From an uncultured Woeseiaceae bacterium (lineage in GTDB: Bacteria; Pseudomonadota; Gammaproteobacteria; Steroidobacterales; UBA11654): a stretch of DNA of 64,000 nucleotides. Both the position numbers and the translations under genes were made by a program. Shown piece after piece: positions 5,520 through 58,681 of the stretch. Location of the stretch: positions 4,753 through 68,752 of the forward strand of contig CAZWGB010000001.1 of assembly GCA_964633465.1 (NCBI GenBank). The letters run 5' to 3'. The stretch's first letter is position 1; the number at the start of each line of letters is the position of its first letter. The notes under the pieces were generated by a model. The model did no database searches, was not told where the DNA came from, and worked only from the letters and a program-made list of their open reading frames with translations.

Positions 5520-6560
5520 ATGAAATTAGGAATGGGATTAGGTTATTCACCAGCCAAGCTAACAATACCTGTGGAAGATATTTTGGAGGCAGAAAAACTA
5601 GGATTTGATTCAGTTTGGTCTGCAGAGTCCTATGGTTCTGATGCCGTTTCTGTCGCGGCTTATGTTTTGGCCTTAACCAGTAAGATCAACGTAGGAACTG
5701 CTATTATGCAAATGCAGGCAAGAACTCCTACCATGACTGCTATGACTGCTTTATCGCTGAATGCACTTTCTGGAGGTCGGTTTTTGCTCGGGCTTGGACC
5801 CTCAGGACCTCAAGTGGTGGAGGGTTGGTATGGAGAACCCTACGGCCGACCGCTTACAAGAACAAAAGAGTACATCTCAATTGTCAGGAAAATAGTTGCC
5901 AGAGAAGAAGCTTTAACTCATCAAGGCTTTCATTACCAAATTCCATACACGGGTGAAGGTTCAAGCGGTCTTGGGAAGCCATTGAAGAGCATCCTTCATA
6001 GCACCAGTGATTTAAAAATATACACGGCATCAATCACCCCTGCAGGCTTGAGATGTGCCGGTGAAGTTTCTGATGGTGTTTTCCCTATTTGGATGAACCC
6101 TGAGAAATTTAATCTGATCGGCGAGCATGTTGAAGAAGGATTCGCAAAAACAGGACAAAACAAAGGTTACGAGCATTTTGATGTTGCCCCTTTTGTGCCG
6201 GTCGCAATGGGAGACAATGTTGATTTTTGTATCCAGATGATGAAACCAATGATGGCGCTCTACATCGGTGGTATGGGCGCTAAATCCAAGAATTTTTATA
6301 ATGACTATGCCAAAAGATTAGGATATGAAGAAGCTGCTGAAACCATTCAAGATCTTTATTTGGAAGGAAAGAAGGAAGAAGCTGCTATGGCTGTTCCAAA
6401 TGAATTGGTTGATGAGTGTGCCTTAATTGGCCCAGCTGAGAGAATTAAAGAACACCTGCAGCCATGGAAAGAATTAGATAAATCAGGAAAAATTGGCACC
6501 TTGGTTTTGGGCAATGCATCAAAAAAAGCTCAAAGAGTAATTGCAGAAGAAGTATTGTAG
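5520..6560 (+). CDS. Luciferase-like monooxygenase (LLM) family oxidoreductase, probably F420-dependent
   Basis: The N-terminus MKLGMGLGY...LGFDSVWSAESYGSDAVS and the 346-aa size resemble the LLM class F420-dependent oxidoreductases. A complete F420 biosynthesis operon lies 2 kb away. Confidence 0.7.
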   Translation: MKLGMGLGYSPAKLTIPVEDILEAEKLGFDSVWSAESYGSDAVSVAAYVLALTSKINVGTAIMQMQARTPTMTAMTALSLNALSGGRFLLGLGPSGPQVVEGWYGEPYGRPLTRTKEYISIVRKIVAREEALTHQGFHYQIPYTGEGSSGLGKPLKSILHSTSDLKIYTASITPAGLRCAGEVSDGVFPIWMNPEKFNLIGEHVEEGFAKTGQNKGYEHFDVAPFVPVAMGDNVDFCIQMMKPMMALYIGGMGAKSKNFYNDYAKRLGYEEAAETIQDLYLEGKKEEAAMAVPNELVDECALIGPAERIKEHLQPWKELDKSGKIGTLVLGNASKKAQRVIAEEVL

Positions 6561-6571
6561 AGGAGTAAACA

Positions 6572-6964
6572 ATGAACTATAAATCTGTGTTTCGTTTTTT
6601 AATTATTGTACCGATATTGTTCATTTTCGTTGCTGTTGGGCTCGATTTTGCTTACCCCTTTCCAGAATCTGTGAGTAGTTATTACGGCGATCTTGCCGCA
6701 TTTGGCTTCAGTTGGAAATATAATGCCATGTTATTTTGTACCCTCGCTGCTTTTGCCGCAGATCTGTGTCTTTGTTTCTTTGTCAAGAACTCTCGCGAGA
6801 TCTGGTTGATGCTGATGGCGATTTTTTTCATATTCTCGGCATCCATGCCAGAGCTGACGATCATGTCACCATTGTCAATTGTTCTGATACAAGTGGCTTG
6901 GTTAATGGCAGGGATTAAGATATCAATGGCCTATCTGTCTCCTCCAATCAGAGATCTGTTTTAA
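6572..6964 (+). CDS. Small integral membrane protein, unknown function (about 4 predicted TM segments)
   Basis: 130-aa hydrophobic ORF beginning 11 nt after the LLM gene and followed by a clear terminator. Confidence 0.5.
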   Translation: MNYKSVFRFLIIVPILFIFVAVGLDFAYPFPESVSSYYGDLAAFGFSWKYNAMLFCTLAAFAADLCLCFFVKNSREIWLMLMAIFFIFSASMPELTIMSPLSIVLIQVAWLMAGIKISMAYLSPPIRDLF

Positions 6965-6981: not shown

Positions 6982-7009
6982 AAAAAAAGGGGGCTGTTTG
7001 CCCCCTTTT
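6982..7009. terminator. Bidirectional rho-independent terminator between convergent genes
   Basis: Stem gggggc (6989-6994) pairs with gccccc (7000-7005), loop tgttt. An A7 run lies on the left and a T4 run on the right, so it reads as hairpin plus U-tract on both strands. Confidence 0.65.
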
Positions 7010-8633: not shown

Positions 8634-11027
8634 TTAATTCGTAGGGTAGGCGCTGTCTAAAAGTGTTTGTAATTTTTGAGAAATATCTACTCTGGGTTGG
8701 TAGTTTGGAATTGTTGGTTCAATCGTGTTGTATAGAGTGTCCCTAAGTCTTGGAGTTCTTTGAGAATTTTTTATAAAGGATTCCATTTTTTCAGGAGTAA
8801 ATTCCTGGCCATGGATACTTCCTGCAGCTTTTGATATTGACTCATTCATCAACGTTCCACCCATATCGTTGACACCCGCATTGAGACAGGCTTCAGCACC
8901 AGCTTGTCCCAGTTTGACCCAACTCGCTTGAATATTGGTGATCAACGGATTCAGGCTTAATCTTGCGATTGCATGCATCAACAGAACTTCTCTGAAAGTA
9001 GGTCCTGGACGAGCATGGCCACGTTTGTACATGGGCGACTCCATGCTGACGAAGGGCAAGGGTATGAATTCTGTAATGCCTCCCGTACGGTTTTGCAGAT
9101 TCCTTAATTTTAGAAGATGGGTAGCCCAATCAGATATATTTTCTTGATGACCAAACATAATGGTCGAAGTGGTATTAATGCCAATTTCGTGAGCCGTTGC
9201 AATGACTTCCAACCACCTTTCACTGTTGATTTTATCAGGACAAATTCTATCTCTGACTCGATCATCTAAAATTTCTGCTGCAGTCCCTGGCATCGTTTTC
9301 AAGCCTGCTTCTTTCAATTTCAGTAAGAAATCCTTAATGGAACTCCCCAAAGTCATGGCCCCATGATGAATTTCTAAAGGCGAGAATGCGTGGATATGCA
9401 TTTCAGGTACTTTTGCTTTGATTGTCCTGCAAATATCCAGGTAAGTATTGCCATCAAAATGGGGATGAATACCACCCTGAAGACAGACTTCAGTGCCACC
9501 TCTTTGCCAGGCTTCCATCGTTCGGTCTGCAATTTCATCATAAGAAATCAGATAAGGTTTACCTCTCAAATTTTCCTTAGTTTTACCTTTGGAGAAAGCA
9601 CAGAAGTGACAGGTATATTTGCAGATATTGGTGTAGTTAATGTTTCGTGTGATGACGTAACTGACAACATCGCCGTTGATTTTTTGTCTCAGAGCGTTGG
9701 CATGGTTAAGTATGTAATGCAAACGGTTTCCTCTTGATTTGAAGAGTTCAATGACCTCACTGTGGTCCAGTGATTGTCCTTTGAGTGCTTTTTTAACGGC
9801 AACAACGATGGAGGAATTCGGTTGCAAATGATTGCTATTCATCCAGTTTTGTGGACGACCTGTATCTGGAATTTGCAGCGATTCTCCACATCGCCACAGG
9901 TTGTGTCTAGCGAATCCTTCAGAGTCTGAAAGTTCATGAATGGAACGTTTTAAGCCTAGGTCAAACCAATTTTTTCCTGCGGTGATGTATTCAGGATATA
10001 TAGTCAATCGTTCTTGAAGTTGTTTGCCTGCATTATTTGTTGCCTTTTTCAAAAGTTCCAATTCTGGCCAGGGGGATTCGGGATTCACATGGTCTTGGGT
10101 AACCGGTGAAACGCCACCCCAATCATTAATTCCTGCCGCAATCAGTTCTGGCAGAACTTTCATGTTGAGATTGGGTGGACACTGAATATTCATGTCTGGT
10201 CCAAAAACAATTCTAGCCATTGCAAGAGTCCACAACAATTCCTCTATTTCGGGCGCTGGAAAATTCCTCATTTTTGTATCAGGTTTGGGAATGAAATTCT
10301 GAACAATAATTTCCTGAATGTGATCGAATTCAAGGTGGATCTCTTTAATTGCCAGGAGACTTTCAATACGCTCCCTTCTGGTCTCCCCAATGCCAATGAG
10401 AATACCCGTAGTTAAAGGCACTGAAGCTTTACCAGCGGCTCGAATGGTATTCAGTCTAAGAGCTGGCTCTTTGTCAGGAGAGCCAAAGTGTGGCTGACTT
10501 TTTCCACACAACCTGTTAGAGGAGGATTCCAGCATGATCCCCATTGAAGGCGCCACCTCTCTGAGTTGGAGCATTTGTTCAATGGTCATGGTTCCAGGGT
10601 TTAAATGGGGCAGAAGACCGGTTTCTTCCAACACCAGTTTTGCCATGGCTTGCAGATAATCCAAGGTTGTTTTGTAACCCAAAAACTGGAGATCTTTTTT
10701 TGCTATTTTATATCGTAGTTCAGGTTTTTCACCAAGTGTGAACAAAGCTTCTTTGCATTGCTTTGCTTTTCCCTCTTGGGCAATTTTCAGAATTTCTTCG
10801 GGCCTGAGATAAGGATTGTTTAACTTTCTAGGCACTTTTGCAAAAGTGCAATAATGACAAACATCCCGGCAAAGCATGGTTAACGGTATGAAGACTTTTT
10901 TCGAAAAAGTGATAACTTTTTTGCTTTCGTCTCTGAGTAAGGATGCCTGTTGCAAAAGTTGCTCGGGTCTGAGGGAATGGCTCAAGTCCAGATATTCATT
11001 GATTTGTCTTGGAGCTTGTTTAAGCAT
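8634..11027 (-). CDS. fbiC: FO synthase, fused CofG/CofH (7,8-didemethyl-8-hydroxy-5-deazariboflavin synthase)
   Basis: 797 aa with two radical-SAM CxxxCxxC motifs (CRDVCHYCTF and CKYTCHFCAF), one in each half. Last gene of the F420 operon. Confidence 0.9.
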   Translation of the reverse strand: MLKQAPRQINEYLDLSHSLRPEQLLQQASLLRDESKKVITFSKKVFIPLTMLCRDVCHYCTFAKVPRKLNNPYLRPEEILKIAQEGKAKQCKEALFTLGEKPELRYKIAKKDLQFLGYKTTLDYLQAMAKLVLEETGLLPHLNPGTMTIEQMLQLREVAPSMGIMLESSSNRLCGKSQPHFGSPDKEPALRLNTIRAAGKASVPLTTGILIGIGETRRERIESLLAIKEIHLEFDHIQEIIVQNFIPKPDTKMRNFPAPEIEELLWTLAMARIVFGPDMNIQCPPNLNMKVLPELIAAGINDWGGVSPVTQDHVNPESPWPELELLKKATNNAGKQLQERLTIYPEYITAGKNWFDLGLKRSIHELSDSEGFARHNLWRCGESLQIPDTGRPQNWMNSNHLQPNSSIVVAVKKALKGQSLDHSEVIELFKSRGNRLHYILNHANALRQKINGDVVSYVITRNINYTNICKYTCHFCAFSKGKTKENLRGKPYLISYDEIADRTMEAWQRGGTEVCLQGGIHPHFDGNTYLDICRTIKAKVPEMHIHAFSPLEIHHGAMTLGSSIKDFLLKLKEAGLKTMPGTAAEILDDRVRDRICPDKINSERWLEVIATAHEIGINTTSTIMFGHQENISDWATHLLKLRNLQNRTGGITEFIPLPFVSMESPMYKRGHARPGPTFREVLLMHAIARLSLNPLITNIQASWVKLGQAGAEACLNAGVNDMGGTLMNESISKAAGSIHGQEFTPEKMESFIKNSQRTPRLRDTLYNTIEPTIPNYQPRVDISQKLQTLLDSAYPTN

Positions 11028-11076
11028 GTACTAGTTATAACCTCAAATTTGTTTCATCTCAACGACAAATTTCCAA

Positions 11077-11703
11077 TTACAAATTGTGTCTTTGTATAAA
11101 GTTCAAAAATTGAGTATTTATAGAGCTCTTTTTGAATTCCTGAAGATCATTCCACGTATCAACATCAAGACTCAGGTTCTTGATTTCTATAATTTTTGTG
11201 TTGATCTTTTGTGCCTTAGCTGCTGCAAGGTGTTTATCAAAACTATTGACACCAAATTGGAATTCCAAAATTGCTGGAAGGTCGAGAATCAGTGCATTAG
11301 TCCCATTTTCTTTGTGTGCTTTAACAATGGATAAACCACCTTGGTGCTCGGCTATGAACTTTGCTATATCTGTTTCTTGTACAAATGGTAGGTCAACAGA
11401 TAAGTAGAGCATCTGCTGGATTCCCTGATTTTGAATCCATTTTGCGGCATGGGTTATCTTTGCTTTTAGCTTCTTTATTTCGGGGTCTTTGAGAATGGTT
11501 ATTTTTTGATTATCAAATGACTTTAACCATTCTTTTTCGTTGCTTAAAACAACTATTTTTTCAATGCTCCGAATAGAGCAAAGCGCTTCAAGAACCTGAG
11601 TGGCTAATATTTGTGTCAGTTCTCTGCGTCGATCACTATCAAGGTGTTTTGATAGTCTTGAGAATGATTCAGAAAAATCATTGATTGGGATCAAAGCCCA
11701 CAT
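11077..11703 (-). CDS. cofC: F420 biosynthesis guanylyltransferase CofC/FbiD family
   Basis: 208 aa with N-terminal ALIPIN....SRL nucleotidyltransferase-type motif. ATGA overlap with cofD. The call relies heavily on context. Confidence 0.7.
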   Translation of the reverse strand: MWALIPINDFSESFSRLSKHLDSDRRRELTQILATQVLEALCSIRSIEKIVVLSNEKEWLKSFDNQKITILKDPEIKKLKAKITHAAKWIQNQGIQQMLYLSVDLPFVQETDIAKFIAEHQGGLSIVKAHKENGTNALILDLPAILEFQFGVNSFDKHLAAAKAQKINTKIIEIKNLSLDVDTWNDLQEFKKSSINTQFLNFIQRHNL

Positions 11704-12677
11704 CAGATAAGGCCTTTTTTAGTGTTGAATTTTTGACTAAATACGATCAGATCTTGGGCTAGTTGAATTTTATCTGCATCGGTTTTCATTATCGTATTGG
11801 TTACTTCAACTTCGATACCCATGGACTGAATTTCAGAAGCCATAGTTTTGTCTCTTTCGTCAATAATCAGACCATCTATCAACGGTTGATAATGTTGAGC
11901 TACACTGGCAACAGTTACTGGTATACCCATTTCATTCATGATCTTTGCAGCAGGTCCTCTCAGTGCTTTTCCCGCAACGATTGGCGAAACAGCAATCACA
12001 GGTGCAGCAGATGATTGAATGTATGATTTGATTTCCTTGATTGATAGGATCGGGTCAATGCTTAAATATGGATTTGAAGGACAAAAAATTATGGCAGCAT
12101 ACTCATTGTTTTCTATCGCAGACATAAGTTCGGGTGAGATGGTAGCTTTGGCACTGCCTTTGAATGAAATTTTTCTGATACTAGGCTTGGATTGATGTTT
12201 AACAAAATATTCCTGGAACGGCAAACAACCGATGTCCGATTCAATGACGGTTAGAACTGGATCATCACTCATAGGTAAGATACGGCTTTTTAAACCAAAT
12301 TGTTGGGCAATGCTTTGAGTAATTTCGGTAAGTCTTAAGCCTTTTCCCCTTAGTTCATTGCGGTAAAAATGCAATGCCAGATCTTTATCACCAATCTGGA
12401 ACCAATTCTCTAAACCCAATTCACCTAAAGCAGAGTGCGTCTTCCAGGTTTCGTCGGCTCTCCCCCATCCCTTTCCAGGATCGTTGACTCCAGCAAGGGT
12501 GTATATCAAAGTGTCTGAATCTGGGGAGATATACAAGCCAAGGTGTGTAAAGTCATCGCCTGTGTTGGCGATGATAGTCAGGGTATCCTGTGCTGCAATC
12601 TGATCCAGACCCCAGCTCAGTTTCGCTCCACCAACACCACCGCTTAGGGCAAGAATGTTATCCCCGTTCATAGTCAA
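11703..12677 (-). CDS. cofD: 2-phospho-L-lactate transferase (LPPG:FO transferase) CofD/FbiA
   Basis: N-terminal LSGGVGGAKL motif, 324 aa, overlaps both neighbours by 1-4 nt. Confidence 0.9.
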   Translation of the reverse strand: MTMNGDNILALSGGVGGAKLSWGLDQIAAQDTLTIIANTGDDFTHLGLYISPDSDTLIYTLAGVNDPGKGWGRADETWKTHSALGELGLENWFQIGDKDLALHFYRNELRGKGLRLTEITQSIAQQFGLKSRILPMSDDPVLTVIESDIGCLPFQEYFVKHQSKPSIRKISFKGSAKATISPELMSAIENNEYAAIIFCPSNPYLSIDPILSIKEIKSYIQSSAAPVIAVSPIVAGKALRGPAAKIMNEMGIPVTVASVAQHYQPLIDGLIIDERDKTMASEIQSMGIEVEVTNTIMKTDADKIQLAQDLIVFSQKFNTKKGLI

Positions 12678-13459
12678 CGAAACAAATCTTCTTTCTTTGG
12701 GCGAATAAGGTCTTGGATAGAGTCTTCGGCAGAATCTATATCTAATCCTTGAATCAATACCACAGGAGTTGCTTCATTAGTTTCACCCATCACCAAAGAG
12801 GCAGCTGCAGCAAGCTGATCTGCCCAAGCAATGCATGTAACTTGCAACTCTCGTTCAAATAAATCTTTGGCTTTGAATCTTAAGTCCATTAGTGCTTTTA
12901 CTCCAGCAGAACCAATGGCATGTCCTATTGTTCCCAATCGCCAAGCTCGCCCGATGCTGTCCGTGATAATAATACCAACGTCAATACCAGTTTTTTCTTT
13001 AATTTGATCCTTAATTCTCATAGCAGATTTATCGGGATTGAGTGGCAGCAATAAGGCTACTTCATCCTTTTGTTTTGATTCAATGTTGGAGCGATCCACG
13101 CCAGCATTGGCTAAGACATGACCCAAACGATGTTCGACAATGATCACGCCATCACTTATTCGAATAACCTCATTGGATTCTTGAAGAATCAATTCAACCA
13201 ATCTTGGGTCTTTATTTGCTTGATGCGCTATATCCAATGCATCTTGGGACGGATCAACGTCGGATAAACTGACTAGGCGTCCTTCTGCTTTAGAAACAAT
13301 TTTTTGGGCAACAGCAACCACATCATTAGTTTCAATAACAATGTTATTGTCAGCCAAGCCAGATAAGATTAATTCTCCAAGATCATCATTCTTTTCAATC
13401 AATGGCAAGCCGGTAAGAGCAGTTAAGGATATCGAAGGTGGTTGTGACTTGAAATGCAT
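12674..13459 (-). CDS. cofE: Coenzyme F420:L-glutamate ligase CofE, stand-alone form with no C-terminal nitroreductase-like domain
   Basis: 261 aa with VVAVAQKIVSKAEGR and ANAGVD motifs typical of CofE. The length is only compatible with the single-domain form. Confidence 0.85.
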   Translation of the reverse strand: MHFKSQPPSISLTALTGLPLIEKNDDLGELILSGLADNNIVIETNDVVAVAQKIVSKAEGRLVSLSDVDPSQDALDIAHQANKDPRLVELILQESNEVIRISDGVIIVEHRLGHVLANAGVDRSNIESKQKDEVALLLPLNPDKSAMRIKDQIKEKTGIDVGIIITDSIGRAWRLGTIGHAIGSAGVKALMDLRFKAKDLFERELQVTCIAWADQLAAAASLVMGETNEATPVVLIQGLDIDSAEDSIQDLIRPKKEDLFR

Positions 13460-13491
13460 GGCAATCAGGGTGTGTCCAGAAAGAGCCTATA

Positions 13492-14148
13492 TCAGTGAGA
13501 TGTGATTTTGATGCCAGAAGATTTACGTTTGTACTTCTTATTAATCGAAATAAGAATCGATGTTAGTGCTTCTGCGGCAGCAGAATTTTCCAGCGGACCA
13601 ACGTGCCAAGAACGTAAACCTAATTCTCCCACAAGTTCAGTGACAAGATTAAGTGCTGCTTCGTTGTTTCCAGAGATCAAAACTTCAGCATCAATTCTGT
13701 CATCAGAATTTAACAAATGCGATCCAATATTCTGCAGTGCAGCTATGACGGTAACATCATCTCCCAGGATATTTTGTGCTTCAACAGCCACTGATCCAGT
13801 CTTTGGCAGGGAAACCTTTGTAACTTCTTTTTGGAGAGGCACGGTTGTATCGACAAGTATTTTACCTTGCAAGTATTCTTTTACAATTTTCAGAATTGTT
13901 TCGTGACTGCTGTAGGGCACTGTGAGTACCGCAAGGTCACACAGTTTTGCAGCTTCTGCCAATTCAAATCCATTTATGGTTTCCAAATCCAATTCTTCTC
14001 GCATCGAGCGAGCAAAACTTGTTGCTTTTTCTTTGGACCGTGAGCCTATGATGATTCTATAGCCTTTCTGTGCCCATTTTTTTGCAAGAGCTGAGCCCAG
14101 ATCTCCAGTTCCACCTAAAATTGCAATTGTTAGATCCCTGCTAGGCAT
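13492..14148 (-). CDS. npdG: NADPH-dependent F420 reductase (Fno/NpdG)
   Basis: [35 protein letters not shown] dinucleotide-binding N-terminus. The preferred ATG at 14148 gives an 8-nt overlap (ATGCCTAG) with the ilvD stop; the track ORF extends to 14184. Confidence 0.8.
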
Positions 14149-15994
14149 CTGTATTCTCATCGGGCAAAACCCGGACAGCTCCATCTGAAGCAGAAGAGGC
14201 CATCATTGCATAGGCTTTCAAGGCTAGACTTACCTCGCGATTTCGACTTGAGGGTTTCCAGGCACTTGATCCTGTTTCATCCATAGCAATTCTTCTGTTT
14301 TCAAGATCTTCTGGTAAAAGATTTACATTGATTTTTCTCTTGGGGATATCAATATCAATAATGTCCCCATTTTTTATCAGCCCAATGGCTCCTCCAGAAG
14401 CTGCTTCAGGTGAAATATGCCCAATTGAAAGACCAGATGTTCCACCAGAGAATCTGCCATCAGTAATCAGGGCACATTTTTTCCCTAAGCCCTTTGACTT
14501 CAAGTAACTGGTTGGATACAGCATTTCTTGCATGCCTGGTCCACCTCTTGGCCCTTCGTATCGTATGACGATGACTTCACCGGCTTTGACTTCGTCGTTC
14601 AAAATACCTTCAATCGCATGGTCTTGACTTTCAAATATGTGTGCTGGGCCACTAAAAACCAAACTGTTTTCGTCAACACCAGCAGTTTTGACTATACAGC
14701 CATCCAAGGCAATGTTGCCCTTGAGCACTGCCAAGCCTCCATCAAGACTATATGCATGATCAATTTCTCGAATACAACCTCGGCTTCGATCTAAGTCCAG
14801 TTCATCGTAACGTTTTTTTTGAGAAAATGGTTCAGTTGTTGGGATCATTCCAGGTGCGGCTGAATAGAATTCCAGTACCTGTTTGTTAGGAGTTCTACTG
14901 ATGTCCCATTTAGCGATTGCTGCTTGCATTGTTTTACTATGAATGGTGCCAGTATCCACATTAAGTAATTTTCCTTTTTCAAGCTGGCCAAGAATAGCCA
15001 TCACTCCTCCTGCACGATGCACATCTTCCAAATGGTAGTGACTGCTTGGCGCTACTTTGCAAAGATTAGGCACGCGTCTGGACAGGCGATCAATATCTTC
15101 CATGGAAAAATCAAGATGTGCTTCTTTTGCTGCTGCTAGGATGTGCAAAACGGTATTGGTAGAACCACCCATTGCAATGTCTAGCGTCATTGCGTTTTCG
15201 AATGCTTTTTTACCAGCTATCTTACGAGGTAAAACCTCTGTATTGTTATCTTCATAATAATCTTTTGCTAATTTAACAATCAGTTTTCCTGCATCCAAAA
15301 ATAGCTGTTTTCTATCTGCGTGTGTTGCCAAGACACTCCCATTACCAGGCAATGCAAGGCCCAATGCTTCTACCAAGCAATTCATTGAGTTTGCAGTAAA
15401 CATTCCCGAACACGACCCACAAGTTGGGCAGGCAGATCGTTCAATCGCAGCCAGATCCTCATCCGATACGGAATCGTCTCCAGCAAAGACCATTGCATCA
15501 ATCAAATCGAGTGTAGTTTCCACACCCTTAACCTTGCTTTTTCCCGCCTCCATGGGACCACCAGAAACAAAAATGGTTGGTATATTCAACCGCATTGCTG
15601 CCATCAACATGCCGGGTGTAATTTTGTCACAGTTTGACAGGCAAACCATTGCGTCTGCACAGTGAGCATTGACCATGTATTCTACTGCATCTGCTATGAG
15701 TTCTCGAGAAGGCAGGCTATAGAGCATGCCCGGGTGTCCCATAGCAATTCCATCATCAACTGCAATGGTATTGAACTCTTTAGCAACCCCTCCTTGTACT
15801 TGGATTTCTTTAGCAACCAGTTGTCCTAAATCTTTGAGATGCACATGCCCCGGTACAAACTGAGTAAAAGAGTTTGCGATGGCAATAATTGGCTTGCCAA
15901 AATCATCATCAGTCATCCCTGTAGCACGCCAGAGAGCCCTAGCACCAGCCATATTTCTTCCATGTGTTGAGGTTTTTGATCTATATTCAGGCAT
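14141..15994 (-). CDS. ilvD: Dihydroxy-acid dehydratase
   Basis: 617 aa. The N-terminus [53 protein letters not shown] is nearly identical to E. coli IlvD as I recall it. Confidence 0.95.
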
Positions 15995-16151
15995 CTCTCT
16001 TTTTAATCTATTTAAGCGGTAATTTTCTTAGGATATTATTATCTCATTTATTGCTAATAATTCTAATTCTCATGGTACAGTAGTGTCAGAAAATTATTGA
16101 TTTTTGATCGATTTGTCTCAAGTTTTTATATGGTATTTATCAGAATTTAAT

Positions 16152-21546: not shown

Positions 21547-22440
21547 CTATTGTTTCAATTCATCGGCAATTCTTTTAATGTGTTCCGGTCTTGTTGTGCA
21601 GCAGCCACCAACCACATAAGCGCCCTCATCAATCCAAATTTTAGCCTCTTTTGCATATTCCTCAGCTGTAATGGGCAGGGTATTTGCATAGTGATTTACA
21701 TCTATATCTACAGTTTCTCCCAGATCCTGAATTGATTTTTGTTCTTTGAGTTTTCTAGAGTTGGCATAGATTCCAAAATTTATTGCTTTTTTAAGTATTC
21801 CTATTGTATTTGTGGCTATATCAGCAGCACAGCAGTTGATTAACTGGCATTCGATATCCAACTGATTGGCCTCCGTTATGGCGTCTATTAATTTTTCCCC
21901 ACTGGGTAATGTGTCTCCTGAAACCCCTTTGTTGGTCCAGCTCAGCCAAACATGGTCACTAAATTCCAAGGCATTCTTTGCTGCATTGATGCCTTCTCTA
22001 ATGGAACCCATTGTTTCACATATGATTAAGTCCACGTTTTGTTGTATGAATGATCCAAGATTTGAATAATAGTCATCAAGCACATCATTGCTGGGTGTAA
22101 GGTCTGGCCGAAAATTGGTCTCAATAGGTGGAAAGGATCCGGCTATGAGAACCTCAGGAAATCCTTGTCTAGATTCTTCAGCTAGATCAATTGCCAATCT
22201 GGTTAGATTTTCAAATTCGCTTTCAATGCCTTCTCTTTTGAGTATGTTTGGTGTGACGTAGTAATTGTTGGTGATGATCACATTACAGCCTGCTTTGATG
22301 TTGTCTTTATGTATTTCAACCACTGCATTGGGAGATTTAATTAGTGCCGAGACCGACCAAATGGAAGTTTTCCAATCAGGGACCTCAAAGCCACGTTGAT
22401 GCAGTTCATCACCCATGCCGCTGTCTAGAAGATATTTCAT
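21547..22440 (-). CDS. Homocysteine S-methyltransferase family protein (MmuM/BHMT-like)
   Basis: 297 aa with a C-terminal GGCCTT zinc-ligand motif and an N-terminal LLDSGMG..L motif of the Hcy-binding domain. Confidence 0.8.
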   Translation of the reverse strand: MKYLLDSGMGDELHQRGFEVPDWKTSIWSVSALIKSPNAVVEIHKDNIKAGCNVIITNNYYVTPNILKREGIESEFENLTRLAIDLAEESRQGFPEVLIAGSFPPIETNFRPDLTPSNDVLDDYYSNLGSFIQQNVDLIICETMGSIREGINAAKNALEFSDHVWLSWTNKGVSGDTLPSGEKLIDAITEANQLDIECQLINCCAADIATNTIGILKKAINFGIYANSRKLKEQKSIQDLGETVDIDVNHYANTLPITAEEYAKEAKIWIDEGAYVVGGCCTTRPEHIKRIADELKQ

Positions 22441-22709: not shown

Positions 22710-22855
22710 TTCTCGATCAAAGTAGAGATCCTCTTTAGCGGTATTTATTAAGCACCCGCAAGCCGGTACAAATCGGTGCTATGTCATGAAGTATTAACTG
22801 CAATTAAGAAATAATCAAGTATTAATTCTGCTATAGATATTGCCTTAGGGAATAA

Positions 22856-23062
22856 TCAAAAATTTATTTTAGGAGATTTATCCGTTTGGTAATAATAAAT
22901 GTACAAAATCGGCAATAATCCTGCTGAATTGATTATAAATAAAACGAGAAACCATCCAAGTTGTCGGTTTCTAGCAGCCTTCCAAAGGGAAATTGCTTTC
23001 CAAGTTATAGACCATATAATCAAAGGGATCATCCAATAATAAAGTAATGGTTGCTCAAGCAT
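22856..23062 (-). CDS. Small two-TM membrane protein (resembles the DUF5652 family)
   Basis: 68 aa. The pattern W..ISLWKAARN.Q..WF..LFIINS.G.LPILY matches my recollection of DUF5652 proteins. Starts 6 nt after the kinase-like gene. Confidence 0.55.
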   Translation of the reverse strand: MLEQPLLYYWMIPLIIWSITWKAISLWKAARNRQLGWFLVLFIINSAGLLPILYIYYYQTDKSPKINF

Positions 23063-23068
23063 TTTCGC

Positions 23069-23797
23069 TCATTCTTTTTTCTGCTCTCTTTTTTTTCTGA
23101 ATCGTCTAAGAGTTAGTGTACGCCATAATTTTCTGGTCAGTCTAATTAATTTATCCAGTTTACCTGATGAATAATAGGTGAGATCATCTTTTGTAATCTC
23201 ATTGTATTGTCTGAAGTATTTGTGTTTAATCCAGGCATTAAGATCCGTTTGTTTAGAGAAATTGTAAAGCCAGCGTTTAATGAATTGATTTTTGGAATTA
23301 AGACTCATAGCCGCACCAAAATCAATCAGGTAAGGTTGGTTCTTCTCACCAATTAAAATGTTGTCCTTTCGTTTTAAATCGCCATGACTGACTCCGGCTT
23401 CATGGATTGATAAAATAAGAGCGAGTAGATCTATAAAAAACTGATCTCGATTCTCAAGCGTATATTCTTTTTCTCTGTAAGAATCGCCATCTATGTATTC
23501 GAGGATTAGACTGCCATCGTCACTCAGCCCATAACATTTAGGAATGCCCGCGATGCCTTCTAATCTTTGATAAATTTTGTATTCATGCTGGATAAAATGT
23601 TTGCTGACACGTCTTGTAAAAACACCAATTTTATTGGTTCTTTTAATTAAAAAAAATTGCTCATCCACCAGCACTTTAAATGCAATTCCTTGATGACCTT
23701 GATTTGTTAGTCGAACCAAATCAATATCTTCGTCTGAACGAAGTCTTTGGTTAATATTTTCGAAAATCTTTTTCGGTAATTGAGTTTTTGATGTCAT
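23069..23797 (-). CDS. Protein-kinase-like fold protein (RIO / Kdo-lipid kinase-like)
   Basis: Catalytic loop HGDLKRKDNIL and DFG motif (LIDFGAA), with a basic C-terminal tail. TAATG overlap with the upstream methyltransferase gene. Confidence 0.65.
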   Translation of the reverse strand: MTSKTQLPKKIFENINQRLRSDEDIDLVRLTNQGHQGIAFKVLVDEQFFLIKRTNKIGVFTRRVSKHFIQHEYKIYQRLEGIAGIPKCYGLSDDGSLILEYIDGDSYREKEYTLENRDQFFIDLLALILSIHEAGVSHGDLKRKDNILIGEKNQPYLIDFGAAMSLNSKNQFIKRWLYNFSKQTDLNAWIKHKYFRQYNEITKDDLTYYSSGKLDKLIRLTRKLWRTLTLRRFRKKREQKKE

Positions 23798-24399
23798 TAC
23801 AACCTGTTGGTTAGGAGTATCAACCAGAATAAAATAAAGACAAAAATTACTGGCTCATAATTATTCTTTAGGCTTTTTTCCCAAGACCATTGAGTAAGAT
23901 TCAAACTGTTGAATTTAAATTTAGGCATTAAGGCAGGTGTTTGCTGAGACCAAGAATCCCATGTTTCAGAAAACAGTGATTTTAATTTTCGGTCCTCATA
24001 CTCAATTGCAGTCGGGTAGTAAAACCAAAAAAAGATAATTGAGATCAGAAAAGCTGAGATAAAACCAGTAGCAAAAGACATGCCAGTGAGAATCAAGATA
24101 TTGCCTGTGTAAAGAGGATGTCTGATATAGGCATAAGGACCTGATGTTGACAGTTCTTTGTTCTTTAACACGAACCCAGAGGCATATAAACGAATAAGCA
24201 AACCATCCAAAACTAATACGCATCCAAGAATAAAAAGATATAAAGTGGGCTCAGCAAATACAGCGAAAAGTACAACTAGTATTGCACCAATGCTCTGTCT
24301 TGAAAATTCATGGTATCGAAGTTCTCGAATAAAATACTGGATCCCTGTTAATTCTTTGAGTCCCTCAGTTCGGTGTGACACGGTTCTAGGATGCTCCAC
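23797..24399 (-). CDS. Isoprenylcysteine carboxyl methyltransferase (ICMT)/phospholipid methyltransferase family membrane protein
   Basis: Multi-TM protein with the GPY.YIRHPLYTG motif typical of ICMT/PEMT-type enzymes. There is no ATG near the 5' end, so the start must be GTG at 24399 or GTG at 24381. Confidence 0.7.
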   Translation of the reverse strand: MEHPRTVSHRTEGLKELTGIQYFIRELRYHEFSRQSIGAILVVLFAVFAEPTLYLFILGCVLVLDGLLIRLYASGFVLKNKELSTSGPYAYIRHPLYTGNILILTGMSFATGFISAFLISIIFFWFYYPTAIEYEDRKLKSLFSETWDSWSQQTPALMPKFKFNSLNLTQWSWEKSLKNNYEPVIFVFILFWLILLTNRL

Positions 24400-38704: not shown

Positions 38705-39886
38705 ATGCCCTACAGTAAAAAGAAAGTTAATAATTGTCTCAATATCAGAGATTTAAGAGCTTTAGCCAGAAAGAATCTTCCTGATGCCATGTTTCATTAT
38801 ATGGACGGGGCAGCTGACGATGAAATTACATTGGCTCGCAATACCCAGGCCTTTAATAACTATGAGTTGATGCCCAACTATTTGGTTGATGTGGAAGAAG
38901 TTAAGCTAGAGACAAAAATTTTTGGCCAAAAACTAGACCTGCCTTTCTTTTTGTCACCCACAGGCATGAATAGATTGTTCCATCATGAAAAGGAATTGGC
39001 AGTAGCGAGAGTAGCAGATTCATTTGGAACTCTTTATTCACTTTCTACTGTAGCAACATCAAGTATTGAAGAAATTTCTGCAGCAATTGATGGACCAAAA
39101 ATGTTCCAAATATATATTCATAAAGACGAAGGTCTGACTAGAGAATTTGTTCAACGAAGTAAGGATTCTGGTTATGCGGCGCTTTGCTTAACTGTTGATG
39201 TGCCCACGGCTGGCAATCGAGAACGTGAATTATTCTACGGTATGTCTATGCCTCCGAAATTACGATACGGTAACATTATTGATTTTCTGAAACATCCGAC
39301 TTGGACGTCAAAGTTATTTCTCCACCCCGATTTTAAGCTTGCCAATGTCGTGGCAAGAAAGGACGTCATAGGTAAAGGTGTGATTAGTTTGATGGATTAT
39401 TTTAATACCCAGCTAATACCAAATGTGACTTGGGATCATGCAGAATGGCTGATTGAAGAGTGGGGTGGGCCTTTTGCTATCAAGGGTTTGTTAACCAAAG
39501 AGGATGCAATCAGAGCTAGGAACATCGGGGCTAGTGCCGTCATGATTTCCAATCATGGTGGCAGACAATTGGATTCGGCGCCTGCACCTGTTGACTGTGT
39601 GACCGAGATTCGAGATGCAGTTGGGGATGATTTGGAGCTTATTGTGGATGGAGGAATTAGAAGGGGTACTGATATTTTGAAAGCTCTTGCACTGGGCGCC
39701 AATGCCGTTTCCATCGGCAGAGCCTATCTGTTTGGACTTGCAGCAGGTGGGGAATTTGGTGTGTTAAGGGCTCTGAGTTTATTGAGAGATGAAGTTATCA
39801 GGGACATGGCTTTATTGGGAACCCCGACAGTCCAAGACATCGGCAGCAAAAACGTTCGATTGAGCAAAACCCCAGTTAAATCTTGA
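38705..39886 (+). CDS. FMN-dependent alpha-hydroxy-acid dehydrogenase/oxidase (LldD/glycolate-oxidase family)
   Basis: 393 aa; SNHGGRQLD active-site motif, DGGIRRG, and the N-terminal family pattern (Y..GGA.DE.T...N). Confidence 0.85.
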   Translation: MPYSKKKVNNCLNIRDLRALARKNLPDAMFHYMDGAADDEITLARNTQAFNNYELMPNYLVDVEEVKLETKIFGQKLDLPFFLSPTGMNRLFHHEKELAVARVADSFGTLYSLSTVATSSIEEISAAIDGPKMFQIYIHKDEGLTREFVQRSKDSGYAALCLTVDVPTAGNRERELFYGMSMPPKLRYGNIIDFLKHPTWTSKLFLHPDFKLANVVARKDVIGKGVISLMDYFNTQLIPNVTWDHAEWLIEEWGGPFAIKGLLTKEDAIRARNIGASAVMISNHGGRQLDSAPAPVDCVTEIRDAVGDDLELIVDGGIRRGTDILKALALGANAVSIGRAYLFGLAAGGEFGVLRALSLLRDEVIRDMALLGTPTVQDIGSKNVRLSKTPVKS

Positions 39887-42168
39887 GTTTTAAGGAATTG
39901 TTGCTTTATAAAAAAATACTCCCTTTGATTTGTTTGCTGCTTTCCACAGCAGTATTAGGGGTTGATATTAACCACGAAATTGAAGTTGCCAAAGAGAATG
40001 CAACAAAAATTAATAACAATGATGTTTTTAATGCCTTTATTTCTGCTGCCGACGACTCTTATATTGAAAATAGGATTGGCAGCATGCTTGATAAAGGTCT
40101 AAATCCCATACCTATAGCCATAAAAGATAACATTGACGTTCGTGGATTGGCCAATACCGCAGGATCCATTGCCCTGAAAAATAATTTCCCTAGAAACGAT
40201 GCTTATCTAATAACAAAACTCAAAAAGGGTGGTTACTATGTTATCGGGAAAACCAATCTTTCAGAATGGGCAAACTTCAGATCCTATGAATCGGCAAGCG
40301 GTTGGTCAAGTATTGGTGGGCAGACCCAAAACCCATATGGTGAAAACAGGAATCCCTGTGGTTCCAGTTCTGGATCAGCAGTCGCTGTGGCTGCGGGGTT
40401 GGTTCCTGTTGCAATAGGTACTGAAACCAATGGTTCCATTTCATGCCCTTCTTCAGTAAATGGAGTAGTCGGTATCAAGCCGACAGTTGGATTAGTCAGC
40501 CGTTCGGGAATTATTCCAATCTCAAAGACACAGGACACGGCAGGGCCAATGGCTAAAACCGTGAAGGAAGCAGCAAGGGTCCTTGAGTATATGGCTGGTT
40601 ACGACCCCAAGGATAAAAGAACAAGTACTATTCCAGCAGATTTCAATTTTCAATTTGCAAAGAATTTAAACGAGCTGTCGCTTCAGTCTAAAAGGATTGG
40701 TTTGTTGTCTTCTGGATCTGAAGATTCAGAAGGTAGTAAATTATTGACAAAGGCTACTGAAATATTTCGAAAACTTGGTGCAGATGTAATACTCATGTCT
40801 GAAACCAAAGAGTACCCTGGCGAAGAAGAGTTTTTTGTACTACTTTTTGAATTTCGAGAAGGGATCAATAAATACTTAAGAAAAGCTAATATAAATTTAC
40901 AAAATTTAAATCAACTAATTGCATTCAACAATGAGAATAGGGATGTGGCAATGGAACACTTTGGCCAAGAAATTTTCATTGAAAGTGCTGAAACGCTAGG
41001 TCAGAGGAGTAAATACATGCGTTCTGTTGAGTTAACAACAAGAGAATCAAGAAATTACATAGATAGTCTTTTAGAGGAATACAGCCTTGATGCTTTGGTT
41101 GGTTTAACCCGTGGACCAGCTTGGCTGATTAATTACAATGGAGGAGATGAACAGGCAATAGAAGATCAGCGATCATGGGGAACTGGAGGGTTTGCAGCCA
41201 TGTCGGGGTATCCTCACATCACTATACCATTTGATCTTGTTGATGGCTTACCTGTGGGTATTTCATTCATTTCCACTGCTTGGGATGACAAATCCATTAT
41301 AGAAATGGCATATGCTTTTGAGCAAGAAAATGAGTTTAATGAATTGCATCAACCACCAAAGAAAAGTGAAAATGAACAGCGTCTTAAAAAAATACTTTTA
41401 TCATCAAGACCTATTGATGCTGGAAAATCTCTCTGGACTGATGAATTGACCTGGATGGAGGTTCGCGATCTCATAGAAAATGGATACACTCAAGTGATAA
41501 TTCCAACCGGTGGCATCGAACAAAACGGACCCTTTCTTGCTACGGGTAAACACAATGTAATTCTTAAAGCCGCCTGTCCAGAAATTGCTAAAAAATTAGG
41601 AAATACCCTGTGTGCACCGATCATCAAATTCGTACCAGAAGGCAACATTGAGCCTCCATCTGGGGCGATGCGTTTTCCTGGAACAATCAGTCTTCGTTCA
41701 GAAACTTATCGAATGCTCTTGGACGATATAGCGAGTAGCCTTAAACAGTCGGGTTTTAAGAATATAATTTTCATAGGTGACAGTGGGGGTAATCAAATAG
41801 GCATGGAGATCGTTGCTAAAAAACTCAATCAACGCTGGAGTGGTTCCGGAATTCTGGCTCACTATATACCTGAGTACTACAATCCTGGTTGGGAAAAAAC
41901 AGAGCGTTTTACAAAAGAAGTTCTTGGAGTTGAAGAGACAAGCAACGATGGCCACCATGACGATATTTGGGTGACTGCAATGATGATGGTGACTGATCCA
42001 GAACAGGTTCGTCATCGGCAACGAATCGATGCCGGACTTGCATCTATCAATGGAGTAGATATCACGCCAATTGAAGAAACAATTGAGTTGGGACGCAAGA
42101 TGCTCGAGTTTCGCACTGAATTTACTGCAGACGCAATCCGTAAGGCCATTCAAAGCTCAAAGCAGTAA
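39883..42168 (+). CDS. Secreted fusion protein: amidase-signature domain plus a creatininase-family domain with substituted metal-ligand motifs
   Basis: TTG start overlapping the upstream stop (TTGA), followed by a signal peptide. N-terminal about 480 aa carry the GSSSGSAVAVAAG amidase signature. The C-terminal about 250 aa resemble creatinine amidohydrolase family proteins (LTWMEVRDL...VIIPTGGIEQNGPF...IGDSGGN). Confidence 0.75.
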   Translation: MSFKELLLYKKILPLICLLLSTAVLGVDINHEIEVAKENATKINNNDVFNAFISAADDSYIENRIGSMLDKGLNPIPIAIKDNIDVRGLANTAGSIALKNNFPRNDAYLITKLKKGGYYVIGKTNLSEWANFRSYESASGWSSIGGQTQNPYGENRNPCGSSSGSAVAVAAGLVPVAIGTETNGSISCPSSVNGVVGIKPTVGLVSRSGIIPISKTQDTAGPMAKTVKEAARVLEYMAGYDPKDKRTSTIPADFNFQFAKNLNELSLQSKRIGLLSSGSEDSEGSKLLTKATEIFRKLGADVILMSETKEYPGEEEFFVLLFEFREGINKYLRKANINLQNLNQLIAFNNENRDVAMEHFGQEIFIESAETLGQRSKYMRSVELTTRESRNYIDSLLEEYSLDALVGLTRGPAWLINYNGGDEQAIEDQRSWGTGGFAAMSGYPHITIPFDLVDGLPVGISFISTAWDDKSIIEMAYAFEQENEFNELHQPPKKSENEQRLKKILLSSRPIDAGKSLWTDELTWMEVRDLIENGYTQVIIPTGGIEQNGPFLATGKHNVILKAACPEIAKKLGNTLCAPIIKFVPEGNIEPPSGAMRFPGTISLRSETYRMLLDDIASSLKQSGFKNIIFIGDSGGNQIGMEIVAKKLNQRWSGSGILAHYIPEYYNPGWEKTERFTKEVLGVEETSNDGHHDDIWVTAMMMVTDPEQVRHRQRIDAGLASINGVDITPIEETIELGRKMLEFRTEFTADAIRKAIQSSKQ

Positions 42169-42201: not shown

Positions 42202-44121
42202 CTAGCAAGACATACAATTGTTGTTGTTTTTAGCTCCGAGTTGTTCCAATAGATCAATGGTTTTACGATAAGGTATTACACGTTCGATAGGTCCATTTGC
42301 CATGTCGACAGTTGTTTGTCCTTTGCGGCTAACAACCATAACATCAGCTCCCTTTTCAAGGAGATATCTAATAACTTTGTTATCTCCTCGTGATGCTGCA
42401 TGATGCAGTGATGTATATCCATTGGCATCACGTAAGTTAACATCCGCCCCACATTCTTCAACTAAAAATTTAACAACCGGTAACCAATTGCCTGGAGCAT
42501 ACTGGTGTGCAGTACCGACAAAATACTGACCATATCCTGCTCCCGCTGCCAGATGGATTGGGTAGATTGAAGGCCCTCCATCTGGAATCGGTGGTAAACC
42601 TGAATAATCTATTTCTTCTTTGACCTGTTTTTCAGGGTCAGCTGCTTGGTCCATTGGTCTGCGTCGTTTCGGTCGTTTGGTATTAGCTATATCTGGATTG
42701 GCTCCATATTTTTTTAGCAGTCGCATGGCTTCTAGATCAAGAGCTTGTGTCGCACGCCAGAATGGTGTGGCTCCTGCAAAGTGAATTCCACCACTGCTCA
42801 TGATGAAGAATGTGTATTCGGTATACCAGAGATGTTGATTCATCTTTATGTTTGGATCTGCACCAGATTTAAGCAGTGCTCTTATAACATCAAGATGCGT
42901 TGCTTGTTGTTGCTGATGTTCAATTGGATGTGCATACGAAGCTTTAGGAGCCCATTTTCTTTCTAAAACTGCAAACAATGGTGATGTGCCAGCAGCACTG
43001 ACAGTATTAGGATTTGCTCCTTTTTCTATTAGTTTCATTGCAAGATCAAATTGTCCATTGATAGCAGCCATCAATAGGGGAGTGGTGCCATCTCCGGATG
43101 GTTGATTAATATCAACATTGTTATCCAGTAACACATCCACTGCTTCCTCATGACCCTGTCTTATTGCATGCAAAAGTGGTGTGAGGCCACCCCATTTACC
43201 GACCATTTTTCCGTAGGATTGCCGTGATGGTTCTTTTCCTTCTTCGGTCTCTGAATTAAGTTCATAGACCGGTTCACCATCTGCATTATAAGTTACCACG
43301 GTCGGTAAATCGGACTGCCTTATTGCAACCGATTGTTGAAATTCTGCTCCTGTATCTAACATAGCATTTTCTTTATCTTCTTCCGCTTTTTGAATAGCTG
43401 ACCAATTGCGTTGAATTTCACGACCCGATTCAATGGCTGCTTGAACTTGAATGGCTGTTGGTAACCAATCAGTACCTCCACCTTCCTTTTCTTTGAATTG
43501 GGCAATGATTTCGTTAATTCTTTTTTCTGCTGATTGATCAGCTTTCTCCATTTGTATGACATCAACAATATTTGATGACAATGCAGAATCAGCCCCTGCA
43601 TCAAGCAATGCATGCATTACACCAAAATGATTTGCAGCTGCAGCAAAAATAAGAGGCGTTTGTCCCCAAGCATTTTCCCGAGCGTTGGTCTGAGCTCCTG
43701 CCAAAAGCAGAGAAGTTACACTTTCTATATTGCCGGATGCAGAAGCTAGATGTAGGGCAGTTGAGCCGGAATTAGCGGTTTTTATGTTTGGATCAATGCC
43801 TGTATCCAATATAATTTTTATTATGTCTGCATTGCCTTTTTTAGCTGCTAAATGCAATGGTTTGTATTGTCCAATTCTAGTTCCAGCCATTGGATTAGCA
43901 CCGGCATAGATCAAAACCTCTGCTAATTCCGAATTTCCTCTTTCTGCTGCCCAATGAAGGGCAGTCATGCCATCTCCCTGAGGTTTATTGACTTCAGCGC
44001 CCTCTTTTAACAATTGCTTTATTAGAGCTATATCACCATTCTCCGCAGCATCAGCCACAGTATTTTCTAGAGCATTTGCTTCGGCCAATAGAAGTGGAAA
44101 CAAGAGGAAAAAAATTTTCAT
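42202..44121 (-). CDS. Exported ankyrin-repeat protein
   Basis: From ATG 44121: signal peptide MKIFFLLFPLLLAEANA (the track ORF begins at GTG 44151). Multiple ANK repeats (G.TALHWAAERGN.E....L...GA.PN...). Ends in NNNNCMSC. Confidence 0.85.
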   Translation of the reverse strand: MKIFFLLFPLLLAEANALENTVADAAENGDIALIKQLLKEGAEVNKPQGDGMTALHWAAERGNSELAEVLIYAGANPMAGTRIGQYKPLHLAAKKGNADIIKIILDTGIDPNIKTANSGSTALHLASASGNIESVTSLLLAGAQTNARENAWGQTPLIFAAAANHFGVMHALLDAGADSALSSNIVDVIQMEKADQSAEKRINEIIAQFKEKEGGGTDWLPTAIQVQAAIESGREIQRNWSAIQKAEEDKENAMLDTGAEFQQSVAIRQSDLPTVVTYNADGEPVYELNSETEEGKEPSRQSYGKMVGKWGGLTPLLHAIRQGHEEAVDVLLDNNVDINQPSGDGTTPLLMAAINGQFDLAMKLIEKGANPNTVSAAGTSPLFAVLERKWAPKASYAHPIEHQQQQATHLDVIRALLKSGADPNIKMNQHLWYTEYTFFIMSSGGIHFAGATPFWRATQALDLEAMRLLKKYGANPDIANTKRPKRRRPMDQAADPEKQVKEEIDYSGLPPIPDGGPSIYPIHLAAGAGYGQYFVGTAHQYAPGNWLPVVKFLVEECGADVNLRDANGYTSLHHAASRGDNKVIRYLLEKGADVMVVSRKGQTTVDMANGPIERVIPYRKTIDLLEQLGAKNNNNCMSC

Positions 44122-44171
44122 ATTTGGCAACTTAATTTTGATGACTTCCACGATTGTGTTGTATTACTCAA

Positions 44172-45542: not shown

Positions 45543-45574
45543 GTAGGCATCCTTTAATCTTTCAATTTTTACTA

Positions 45575-56312: not shown

Positions 56313-56315
56313 ATT

Positions 56316-57620: not shown

Positions 57621-57621
57621 A

Positions 57622-58680: not shown

Positions 58681-58681
58681 A

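Follow-up and report, generated by a model that had tools for sequence, protein, structure and literature searches.

The 64-kb stretch of DNA analysed here (the window) very probably carries a complete proteobacterial-type module for coenzyme F420, placed behind ilvD and inherited across a lineage of uncultured marine Gammaproteobacteria. Six genes follow one another on the minus strand in the order ilvD-fno-cofE-cofD-cofC-fbiC (Table 1). For each of them, the NCBIfam score exceeds the curated cut-off and lies far beyond chance. An earlier note on this DNA had proposed the same assignments, and these hold, as do its reading-frame coordinates and strand; the profile searches on which it had staked cofC, cofD and cofE (TIGR03552, TIGR01819 and TIGR01916, respectively) all returned scores above the cut-offs. 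As a gene set for making and recharging F420, the array is of the standard proteobacterial type, with nothing unusual about it. The fno-cofE-cofD-cofC-fbiC cassette recurs in many Gamma- and Alphaproteobacteria, and among the loci compared it is also present in L015, L030, L031, L041, L048 (Litorivivens), L060, L062, L077 and L090.

Table 1. Features of the F420 locus and its plus-strand neighbours (window coordinates; model cut-offs in brackets)
Feature	Description	Position	Strand	Evidence or remark
LLM gene	LLM-class F420-dependent oxidoreductase, Rv3520c subfamily, 346 aa	5520..6560	+	TIGR03559 379 bits (335)
130-aa ORF	conserved, hydrophobic N-terminus	6572..6964	+	11 nt downstream of LLM gene
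hairpin	strong, 10 pairs of which 6 are G-C, between runs of A and T	6985..7009	.	top terminator-like match
fbiC	fused CofG (N-terminal)/CofH (C-terminal) radical-SAM FO synthase, 797 aa	8634..11027	-	NF006687 1084 bits (1018)
cofC	guanylyltransferase activating the C3-acid precursor, 208 aa	11077..11703	-	TIGR03552 135 bits (105)
cofD	phospholactyl/enolpyruvyl transferase, 322 aa from ATG 12671	11703..12671	-	TIGR01819 300 bits (257.45)
cofE	stand-alone F420-0:gamma-glutamyl ligase, 261 aa	12674..13459	-	TIGR01916 266 bits (180.65)
fno/npdG	NADPH-dependent F420 reductase, 218 aa from ATG 14148	13492..14148	-	TIGR01915 183 bits (149.8)
ilvD	dihydroxy-acid dehydratase, 617 aa	14141..15994	-	NF009103 1145 bits (710); PF00920 + PF24877
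candidate promoter	putative promoter for all six genes	16060..16121	-	two best sigma-70-like matches, ilvD-aceE spacer

In the proposed scheme, FbiC would combine tyrosine with a riboflavin intermediate to give the deazaflavin FO, CofC would guanylylate a C3 acid for CofD to move onto FO, and the stand-alone CofE would attach the gamma-glutamyl tail; Fno would then load the cofactor with hydride from NADPH. FbiC unites both radical-SAM halves in one polypeptide, with TIGR03550 (CofG) matching residues 40-363 and TIGR03551 (CofH) residues 422-769. Besides its match to the family model, CofC has the key residues of the CofC/FbiD family, three aspartates that bind Mg and a serine that binds the carboxylate: Asp104, Asp180, Asp182 and Ser154 align with Asp116, Asp191, Asp193 and Ser165 of 7P97. 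Fno matches solved Fno structures (T. fusca 5N2I, 1.3e-33; 1JAX, 6.6e-28).

The array opens with ilvD, which encodes a housekeeping enzyme of branched-chain amino-acid metabolism, and the start of fno overlaps its end by 8 nt (ATGCCTAG). Three in-frame ATGs of fno (14148, 14160 and 14184) would give overlaps of 8, 20 or 44 nt, respectively. The 8-nt version, of the form ATGnnTAR, is kept in L007, L013 and L015, and its conservation in these relatives supports both the start at 14148 and the overlap as previously described. Four of five sublineages retain it, and the fifth has a 4-nt spacer. The further junctions measure +32 nt (fno/cofE), +2 or -4 nt (cofE/cofD), -1 nt (cofD/cofC, confirmed as TGATG) and +49 nt (cofC/fbiC). 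The 4-nt cofE/cofD overlap that the earlier note had read depends on a TTG at 12677 (324-aa product); it is doubtful and probably wrong, since metagenome gene calls start cofD at ATG 12671 (322 aa) and the resulting 2-nt spacer matches that of the L010 lineage. A 2-nt spacer thus appears to be the more likely junction. Short gaps and overlaps are the general pattern of packing throughout the window.

Through the 8-nt overlap, fno-cofE-cofD-cofC-fbiC would be translationally coupled to ilvD, and given this coupling and the position of the cassette directly behind ilvD, the six genes are probably read from the ilvD promoter. A single transcript from ilvD to fbiC is suggested by the shared strand, the junction spacing and the outcome of a sequence scan, which found no strong terminator-like site inside the array. 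Both sigma-70-like matches of the candidate promoter agree at 10/12 positions, yet the candidate is a weak one, as the region holds in total no more promoter-like sites than expected from shuffles. Promoters internal to ilvD may exist as well.

The position of ilvD upstream of the cassette is common to L001-L013 and L015, which a CofD tree (neighbour-joining, without support values) unites in a single clade, whereas ilvD adjoins the F420 cluster in 0/78 loci outside this clade. Identity of IlvD to its relatives in L007-L013 is 81-82%, and the ilvD-fno linkage extends to the MAG UBA11654, whose CofE is just 50% identical. Among the loci compared, the ilvD-coupled cassette was seen solely in this lineage, and, judged by these sequences, the ilvD-fno linkage marks out a monophyletic lineage among uncultured marine Gammaproteobacteria. 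A scan of genome contigs matched at least 600 stretches, with one close relative (L013) and one deeper one (L015) among the matches listed; the taxonomic extent of the clade is therefore a lower bound, read from the listed matches. The coupling of ilvD to fno, to which the earlier note had drawn attention, is real and is conserved lineage-wide rather than being a one-off; it fits positional coupling in a compact genome.

On the plus strand, the product of the LLM gene belongs to an F420-dependent family, as had been supposed, and this nearby, strongly conserved oxidoreductase is most likely a client of the cofactor. Wherever a clade locus extends far enough (L001-L004 and L007-L013), the gene is kept near the operon, and in the L010 lineage its product is 91% identical, versus just 73% for CofE. 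The 130-aa ORF that follows has no Pfam or NCBIfam match. Its homologues in L007-L013 are 62-64% identical, lie on the LLM strand and adjoin hsp20; in L007-L009 and L013 they come immediately behind the LLM gene, and in L010-L012 two small genes intervene. The hairpin between the 130-aa ORF (plus strand) and hsp20 (minus strand) likely acts as a bidirectional terminator that would close both units. Elsewhere in the window, a RIO/Pkinase-like neighbour at first prompted us to consider an archaeal origin, which we rejected, as a his operon, an AceE-type pyruvate dehydrogenase E1 and the source labels all indicate Gammaproteobacteria. The his operon encodes a long HisG and a fused HisB.

CofE bears out the earlier description of a single-domain ligase lacking a reductase domain. 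PF01996 is its sole Pfam content, and an alignment with the stand-alone CofE of A. fulgidus (2PHN, 254 residues) pairs residues 14-261, the final one included, with residues 10-245 of that enzyme, a full-length ligase match with no extra domain. Against the FbiB-type model NF009810 (449 positions), CofE covers positions 11-243 only, scores 195 bits (below the cut-off of 304) and lacks the C-terminal FMN-binding nitroreductase-fold domain that FbiB has fused to its ligase. In all 120 homologues listed, PF01996 is likewise the sole domain, and the length is ~250-270 aa in nearly every case. An HMM built from five cluster-linked FbiE-like nitroreductases of Chloroflexi loci found no such reductase when the window was read in all six frames (best E = 2.2), and PF00881 was absent from the ~55 window ORFs scanned against Pfam. 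Nor is there a linked FbiE-type reductase in L001-L013, judged from contig flanks of up to 20 kb. Across the loci sampled, a linked FbiE/FbiB-type reductase occurs in 5/52 from Proteobacteria versus 17/24 from Chloroflexi. Clustering of all neighbourhood ORFs returned only the known core, LLM genes and antisense artefacts of high-GC loci, and no recurrent unknown gene fit as reductase or kinase. The absence of a built-in reductase is normal for proteobacterial F420 clusters. The earlier choice between a precursor for which no reduction is required and an unlinked reductase is correct and also generic, applying to ~90% of the proteobacterial clusters sampled, and the missing reductase 'CofX' or kinase 'CofB' is a published question (PMC6450877, PMC8498797).

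As to the precursor, the specificity residues of CofC (Gly151, Leu79) are of the 2-phospho-L-lactate (2-PL)/PEP type, within which the sequence does not separate PEP from 2-PL, and neither do the published assays themselves (PMC8764529). The precursor may well be PEP, in which case the reductase would be unlinked or of a type other than FbiE; that dehydro-F420 is retained as the end product is improbable. A possible but more doubtful reading is that CofC activates 2-PL, as in the classical archaeal scheme, so that F420-0 would arise directly with no reductase in the genome. This would agree with the absence of a linked reductase from 13 clade loci and 47/52 proteobacterial loci; groups that do use a reductase, such as Chloroflexi, usually have it inside the cluster (17/24). 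In addition, CofD is nearer to M. mazei CofD (3C3D, 209 bits) than to M. smegmatis FbiA (6UVX, 167 bits), and a search with CofC at E <= 0.01 retrieves M. mazei CofC as well as the enzyme of Mycetohabitans, but not M. tuberculosis FbiD. Alphaproteobacterial CofCs also favour 2-PL in vitro, but this preference is uninformative, since the enzymes of known PEP users share it (PMC8764529). Moreover, an enzyme making 2-PL is known from no organism (PMC6450877), and reductase-bearing loci are interspersed with reductase-less ones in the CofD tree, so that phylogeny, too, leaves PEP versus 2-PL unsettled. The earlier note had also named 3-phosphoglycerate, which Mycetohabitans incorporates as 3-phospho-D-glycerate (3-PG), no reduction being needed. 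The single-domain CofE and the lack of a linked reductase are as in Mycetohabitans, and the best PDB match of CofC is indeed the 3-PG enzyme 7P97, at 36.7 bits only. However, Ser162, Met91, His145 and Cys95 of that enzyme are replaced by Gly151, Leu79, Asn133 and Ile83. Ser162 is the diagnostic residue for 3-PG in the Mycetohabitans enzyme, where any change except Thr abolishes the preference for this substrate (PMC8764529). Since the window CofC has Gly151 instead of Ser or Thr at this position (as 66/70 aligned homologues have Gly), production of 3PG-F420 is extremely unlikely.

Two further readings go beyond a standard module. That the lineage is devoid of FbiE/FbiB-type reductases genome-wide and finishes F420 by an undescribed step, be it a non-nitroreductase dehydro-F420 reductase (possibly the Rv3520c-type LLM enzyme) or a 2-PL-forming enzyme, is very improbable; if true, a genome this small and compact would lend itself well to the hunt for 'CofX' or 'CofB'. 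It is likewise most unlikely that the ilvD linkage is functional, with IlvD or branched-chain co-regulation contributing to F420 synthesis or use in the lineage. Although linkage and 8-nt overlap persist down to 50% CofE and 78% IlvD identity, IlvD is an orthodox and highly conserved equivalog (1145 bits), none of the loci outside the clade places ilvD beside the cluster, and one sublineage has replaced the overlap by a spacer. Besides, dense packing is general in the window, and we found no paper tying IlvD to F420.

With a complete module of the proteobacterial type, inherited with ilvD, an abundant uncultured marine gammaproteobacterial lineage joins the likely F420 producers; CofE clusters of this lineage occur in hundreds of contig-index blocks, many of them from ocean metagenome assemblies. 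New here are CofC Gly151, the monophyletic ilvD-fno lineage, the conserved 8-nt overlap and the revised cofE/cofD spacer. The recognised gap concerns how F420 is completed without FbiB or FbiE, or where 2-PL originates. For testing it, the window is no better than cultured Alphaproteobacteria, while the compact genomes of the lineage could reduce the ground that a comparative search for the missing enzyme has to cover.

Known F420 systems resemble the present one to varying degrees. In mycobacterial FbiABCD, PEP gives rise to dehydro-F420-0, which the FbiB C-terminal domain reduces (PMC6450877). The FbiC fusion is shared, and CofC/FbiD, CofD/FbiA and the CofE-like ligase domain are homologous; here, in contrast, no FMN-binding nitroreductase domain is found on CofE or in the window, and the match of CofD to FbiA is weaker than that to archaeal CofD. 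Thermomicrobium/Chloroflexi clusters, which carry the stand-alone reductase FbiE (Braga et al. 2020, as described in PMC8498797), have a stand-alone CofE, fno upstream of cofE and an LLM gene nearby in common with this locus. Their nitroreductase-like gene, often accompanied by PPOX-like and pyrophosphatase-like genes, lies between cofE and cofD, whereas these two genes abut here. The Mycetohabitans 3PG-F420 pathway shares a Gram-negative host, a single-domain CofE and no reductase (PMC8764529), but differs in the CofC residues, which are of the 2-PL/PEP type here. The clusters of Paracoccus denitrificans and Oligotropha carboxidovorans, so far as Ney et al. 2017 is reported in PMC8498797, are alike in their fused FbiC, separate CofC and CofD, single-domain CofE without a reductase domain, and Fno or LLM gene alongside; what sets the present locus apart from them is its uncultured marine gammaproteobacterial host and the coupling of the cassette to ilvD.

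The earlier note, working from the sequence alone, had proposed a complete F420 operon led by ilvD. Its observation was correct and its annotation sound. All six consecutive minus-strand ORFs score above their curated NCBIfam cut-offs (see table) and Pfam concurs. The N-terminal and C-terminal halves of FbiC match the CofG and CofH models, respectively, and, among solved structures, the window Fno matches the Fno entries 5N2I and 1JAX. CofE, described as lacking a nitroreductase-like domain, indeed carries PF01996 only, and its residues 14-261 can be aligned to positions 10-245 of the Archaeoglobus fulgidus CofE (254 residues); it is therefore a complete stand-alone ligase rather than a truncated FbiB. 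The F420-dependent LLM oxidoreductase was likewise recovered and is the obvious predicted client enzyme. Together with a 130-aa ORF, it remains near the operon in those loci of the clade that are of sufficient length, the LLM protein being 91% identical where CofE is just 73% identical.

Features of the window and of named comparison loci, the latter in coordinates of their own locus
Feature	Position	Strand	Evidence or remarks
ilvD-fno-cofE-cofD-cofC-fbiC	15994 to 8634	-	
ilvD			NF009103, 1145 bits (cut-off 710)
fno/npdG			TIGR01915, 183 bits (149.8)
cofE			TIGR01916, 266 bits (180.65)
cofD			TIGR01819, 300 bits (257.45)
cofC			TIGR03552, 135 bits (105)
fbiC			NF006687, 1084 bits (1018)
LLM-class F420-dependent oxidoreductase	5520-6560	+	Rv3520c subfamily; TIGR03559, 379 bits (335)
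130-aa ORF	6572-6964	+	directly after LLM gene, two small genes intervening in L010-L012; shares the LLM gene's strand across the lineage; hydrophobic N-terminus, no family match; 62-64% identical across L007-L013
Hairpin, strong	6985-7009		between LLM/130-aa ORF pair and hsp20
SAM-II (SAM_alpha) riboswitch match	22714-22789	-	37.8 bits, just above gathering 36
Homocysteine S-methyltransferase gene	21547-22440		
Conserved trio	22860-24399	-	Pkinase/RIO-like kinase (242 aa), DUF5652 small protein, PEMT/ICMT-like methyltransferase; also in L007, L010
Amidase-creatininase domain fusion	39883-42168	+	761 aa
Ankyrin-repeat, DUF1552 and planctomycete-type proteins	42202-47962	-	ankyrin protein 649 aa, nearly all repeats; planctomycete-type protein with DUF1592/DUF1588/DUF1585/DUF1587/DUF1595
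Indoleamine 2,3-dioxygenase homologue, bacterial	53864-55006	+	380 aa; PF01231 at 5e-87
his operon, hisG-D-C-B-H-A-F	55109-62658 region		long HisG, fused HisB
Trp-repressor-family gene	55109-55423		104 aa; precedes his operon
hisI	62164-62658		PRA-CH only; strand opposite to his operon
Reductase gene, proteobacterial L017			stand-alone, within cluster
Reductase gene, proteobacterial L032			stand-alone copy, within cluster, after fbiC
Reductase gene, proteobacterial L067			stand-alone copy, within cluster
FbiB-like cofE-nitroreductase fusion, alphaproteobacterial L066	6561-7979		472 aa
FbiB-like cofE-nitroreductase fusion, alphaproteobacterial L083	9884-11383		500 aa
LLM-family gene substituting for fno, L018, L027, L029, L042	~9000-10000		high-GC Alphaproteobacteria; immediately upstream of cofE, abutting or overlapping it

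The setting is that of a compact genome, with dense gene packing over the entire window and a G+C content of ~40% throughout that does not shift at the F420 operon. The long HisG and fused HisB of the his operon, an AceE-type pyruvate dehydrogenase E1 and an IbpA-like small heat-shock protein fit the gammaproteobacterial label that one member of the CofE cluster carries, and marine metagenome contigs encode proteins identical to those of the window. No hisE domain was seen with the his genes in the window scan. The grouping of ankyrin, DUF1552 and DUF1592-type proteins is unusual for a free-living marine gammaproteobacterium. Besides, the SAM-II match precedes a small Trp-repressor-like ORF and the homocysteine S-methyltransferase gene, and relatives have methionine-pathway genes (Cys_Met_Meta_PP, MTHFR) at this position. 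The kinase-containing trio is kept near the operon across the lineage.

Within the array, the fno start can be placed at any of three in-frame ATGs, giving an 8-, 20- or 44-nt overlap with ilvD, and metagenome gene calls use the 20-nt or the 8-nt version. The 8-nt overlap originally reported is supported because the exact ATGnnTAR arrangement is kept in two relatives (L007, L013) and in the distant MAG UBA11654 (L015); the L010 lineage has a 4-nt spacer there and no overlap. The 4-nt cofE/cofD overlap of the earlier note, in turn, depends on a TTG start at 12677 and probably gives way to a 2-nt spacer, favoured by the gene callers' choice of ATG 12671 (322-aa product) and by the identical spacing in L010. 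At the cofD/cofC junction, TGATG confirms the 1-nt overlap, while fno/cofE and cofC/fbiC are separated by 32 and 49 nt. A search for terminator-like hairpins inside the array yielded none that was convincing, and the region's two best promoter-like matches lie just upstream of ilvD, although promoter-like sites overall were not above shuffles.

The ilvD-fno coupling is real, yet no one-off: ilvD immediately precedes fno in all loci of the lineage (CofE identity 100%, 73%, 64% and 62%), and in MAG UBA11654 (CofE 50%, IlvD 78% identical) the end of a partial ilvD lies just ahead of fno. These ilvD-linked loci group as a single clade in a neighbour-joining tree of CofD, and ilvD was near the F420 cluster in 0 of the 78 other loci among the matches listed. 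Nothing supports a functional tie between ilvD and F420, no paper mentioning one was found, and the IlvD protein, highly conserved, is itself an orthodox equivalog. Most simply, a standard F420 cassette would have been placed after ilvD in an ancestral genome, and the coupling would have persisted in a compact genome, which fits the compaction originally suggested.

As to the side-chain precursor, 3-phosphoglycerate had been named as a possibility. Its use is diagnosed by Ser162 in the Mycetohabitans CofC, with contributions from Met91, Cys95 and His145 (Hasan et al., PMC8764529). Aligned to 7P97, the window CofC retains the three Mg-binding aspartates and the carboxylate-binding serine, yet has Gly151, Leu79, Ile83 and Asn133 at these four positions, making 3PG-F420 an unlikely product. 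Glycine occupies the Ser162 position in 66 of 70 CofC homologues, reductase-bearing clusters included. 2-Phospholactate and PEP are not separable by in vitro assays (PMC8764529). PEP would call for a dehydro-F420 reductase, and a Pfam scan of ~55 window ORFs returned no nitroreductase. An HMM built from five nitroreductase-like genes that separate cofE from cofD in Chloroflexi was positive in 17 of 24 Chloroflexi and 5 of 52 proteobacterial loci among those listed, had no match in this lineage (13 loci) and found nothing in the six-frame translation of the window (best E = 2.2). In six Anaerolineales loci (L016, L019, L022, L024, L037, L065), three genes lie between cofE and cofD: the FbiE-like nitroreductase-like gene, a PPOX/FDOR-like gene (~130 aa) and a gene with an inorganic-pyrophosphatase-like motif (~125 aa).

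An archaeal-like route from 2-phospholactate is weakly hinted at by CofD, which scores higher against Methanosarcina mazei CofD (209 bits) than against Mycobacterium smegmatis FbiA (167 bits), and by a CofC search in which M. tuberculosis FbiD was not among the hits at E <= 0.01. However, loci with and without a reductase are intermixed in the CofD tree, in which Chloroflexi nest within the proteobacterial radiation, and we know of no source of 2-phospholactate. We infer that PEP, combined with an unlinked or non-orthologous reductase, is slightly ahead of 2-phospholactate.

The additions made here are modest, namely evidence against 3-phosphoglycerate, recognition that the ilvD coupling marks a single lineage in which it is conserved, and the correction of one junction. 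A 2021 review distinguished three routes and identified the stand-alone Chloroflexi reductase as FbiE (PMC8498797). Completion of F420 without a linked reductase is already treated as unsolved in the literature, and our search of work from 2021 onward found no answer. Among the 80 listed loci from species-representative genomes, the order fno-cofE-cofD-cofC-fbiC was found repeatedly in Gamma- and Alphaproteobacteria (e.g. Litorivivens lipolytica and an HTCC2089-family MAG), and all 120 listed CofE homologues carry PF01996 only, nearly all being ~250-270 aa long. A single-domain CofE without a linked reductase is thus the proteobacterial norm; what is new about the array is its host lineage, the F420 module itself being of the ordinary proteobacterial type.
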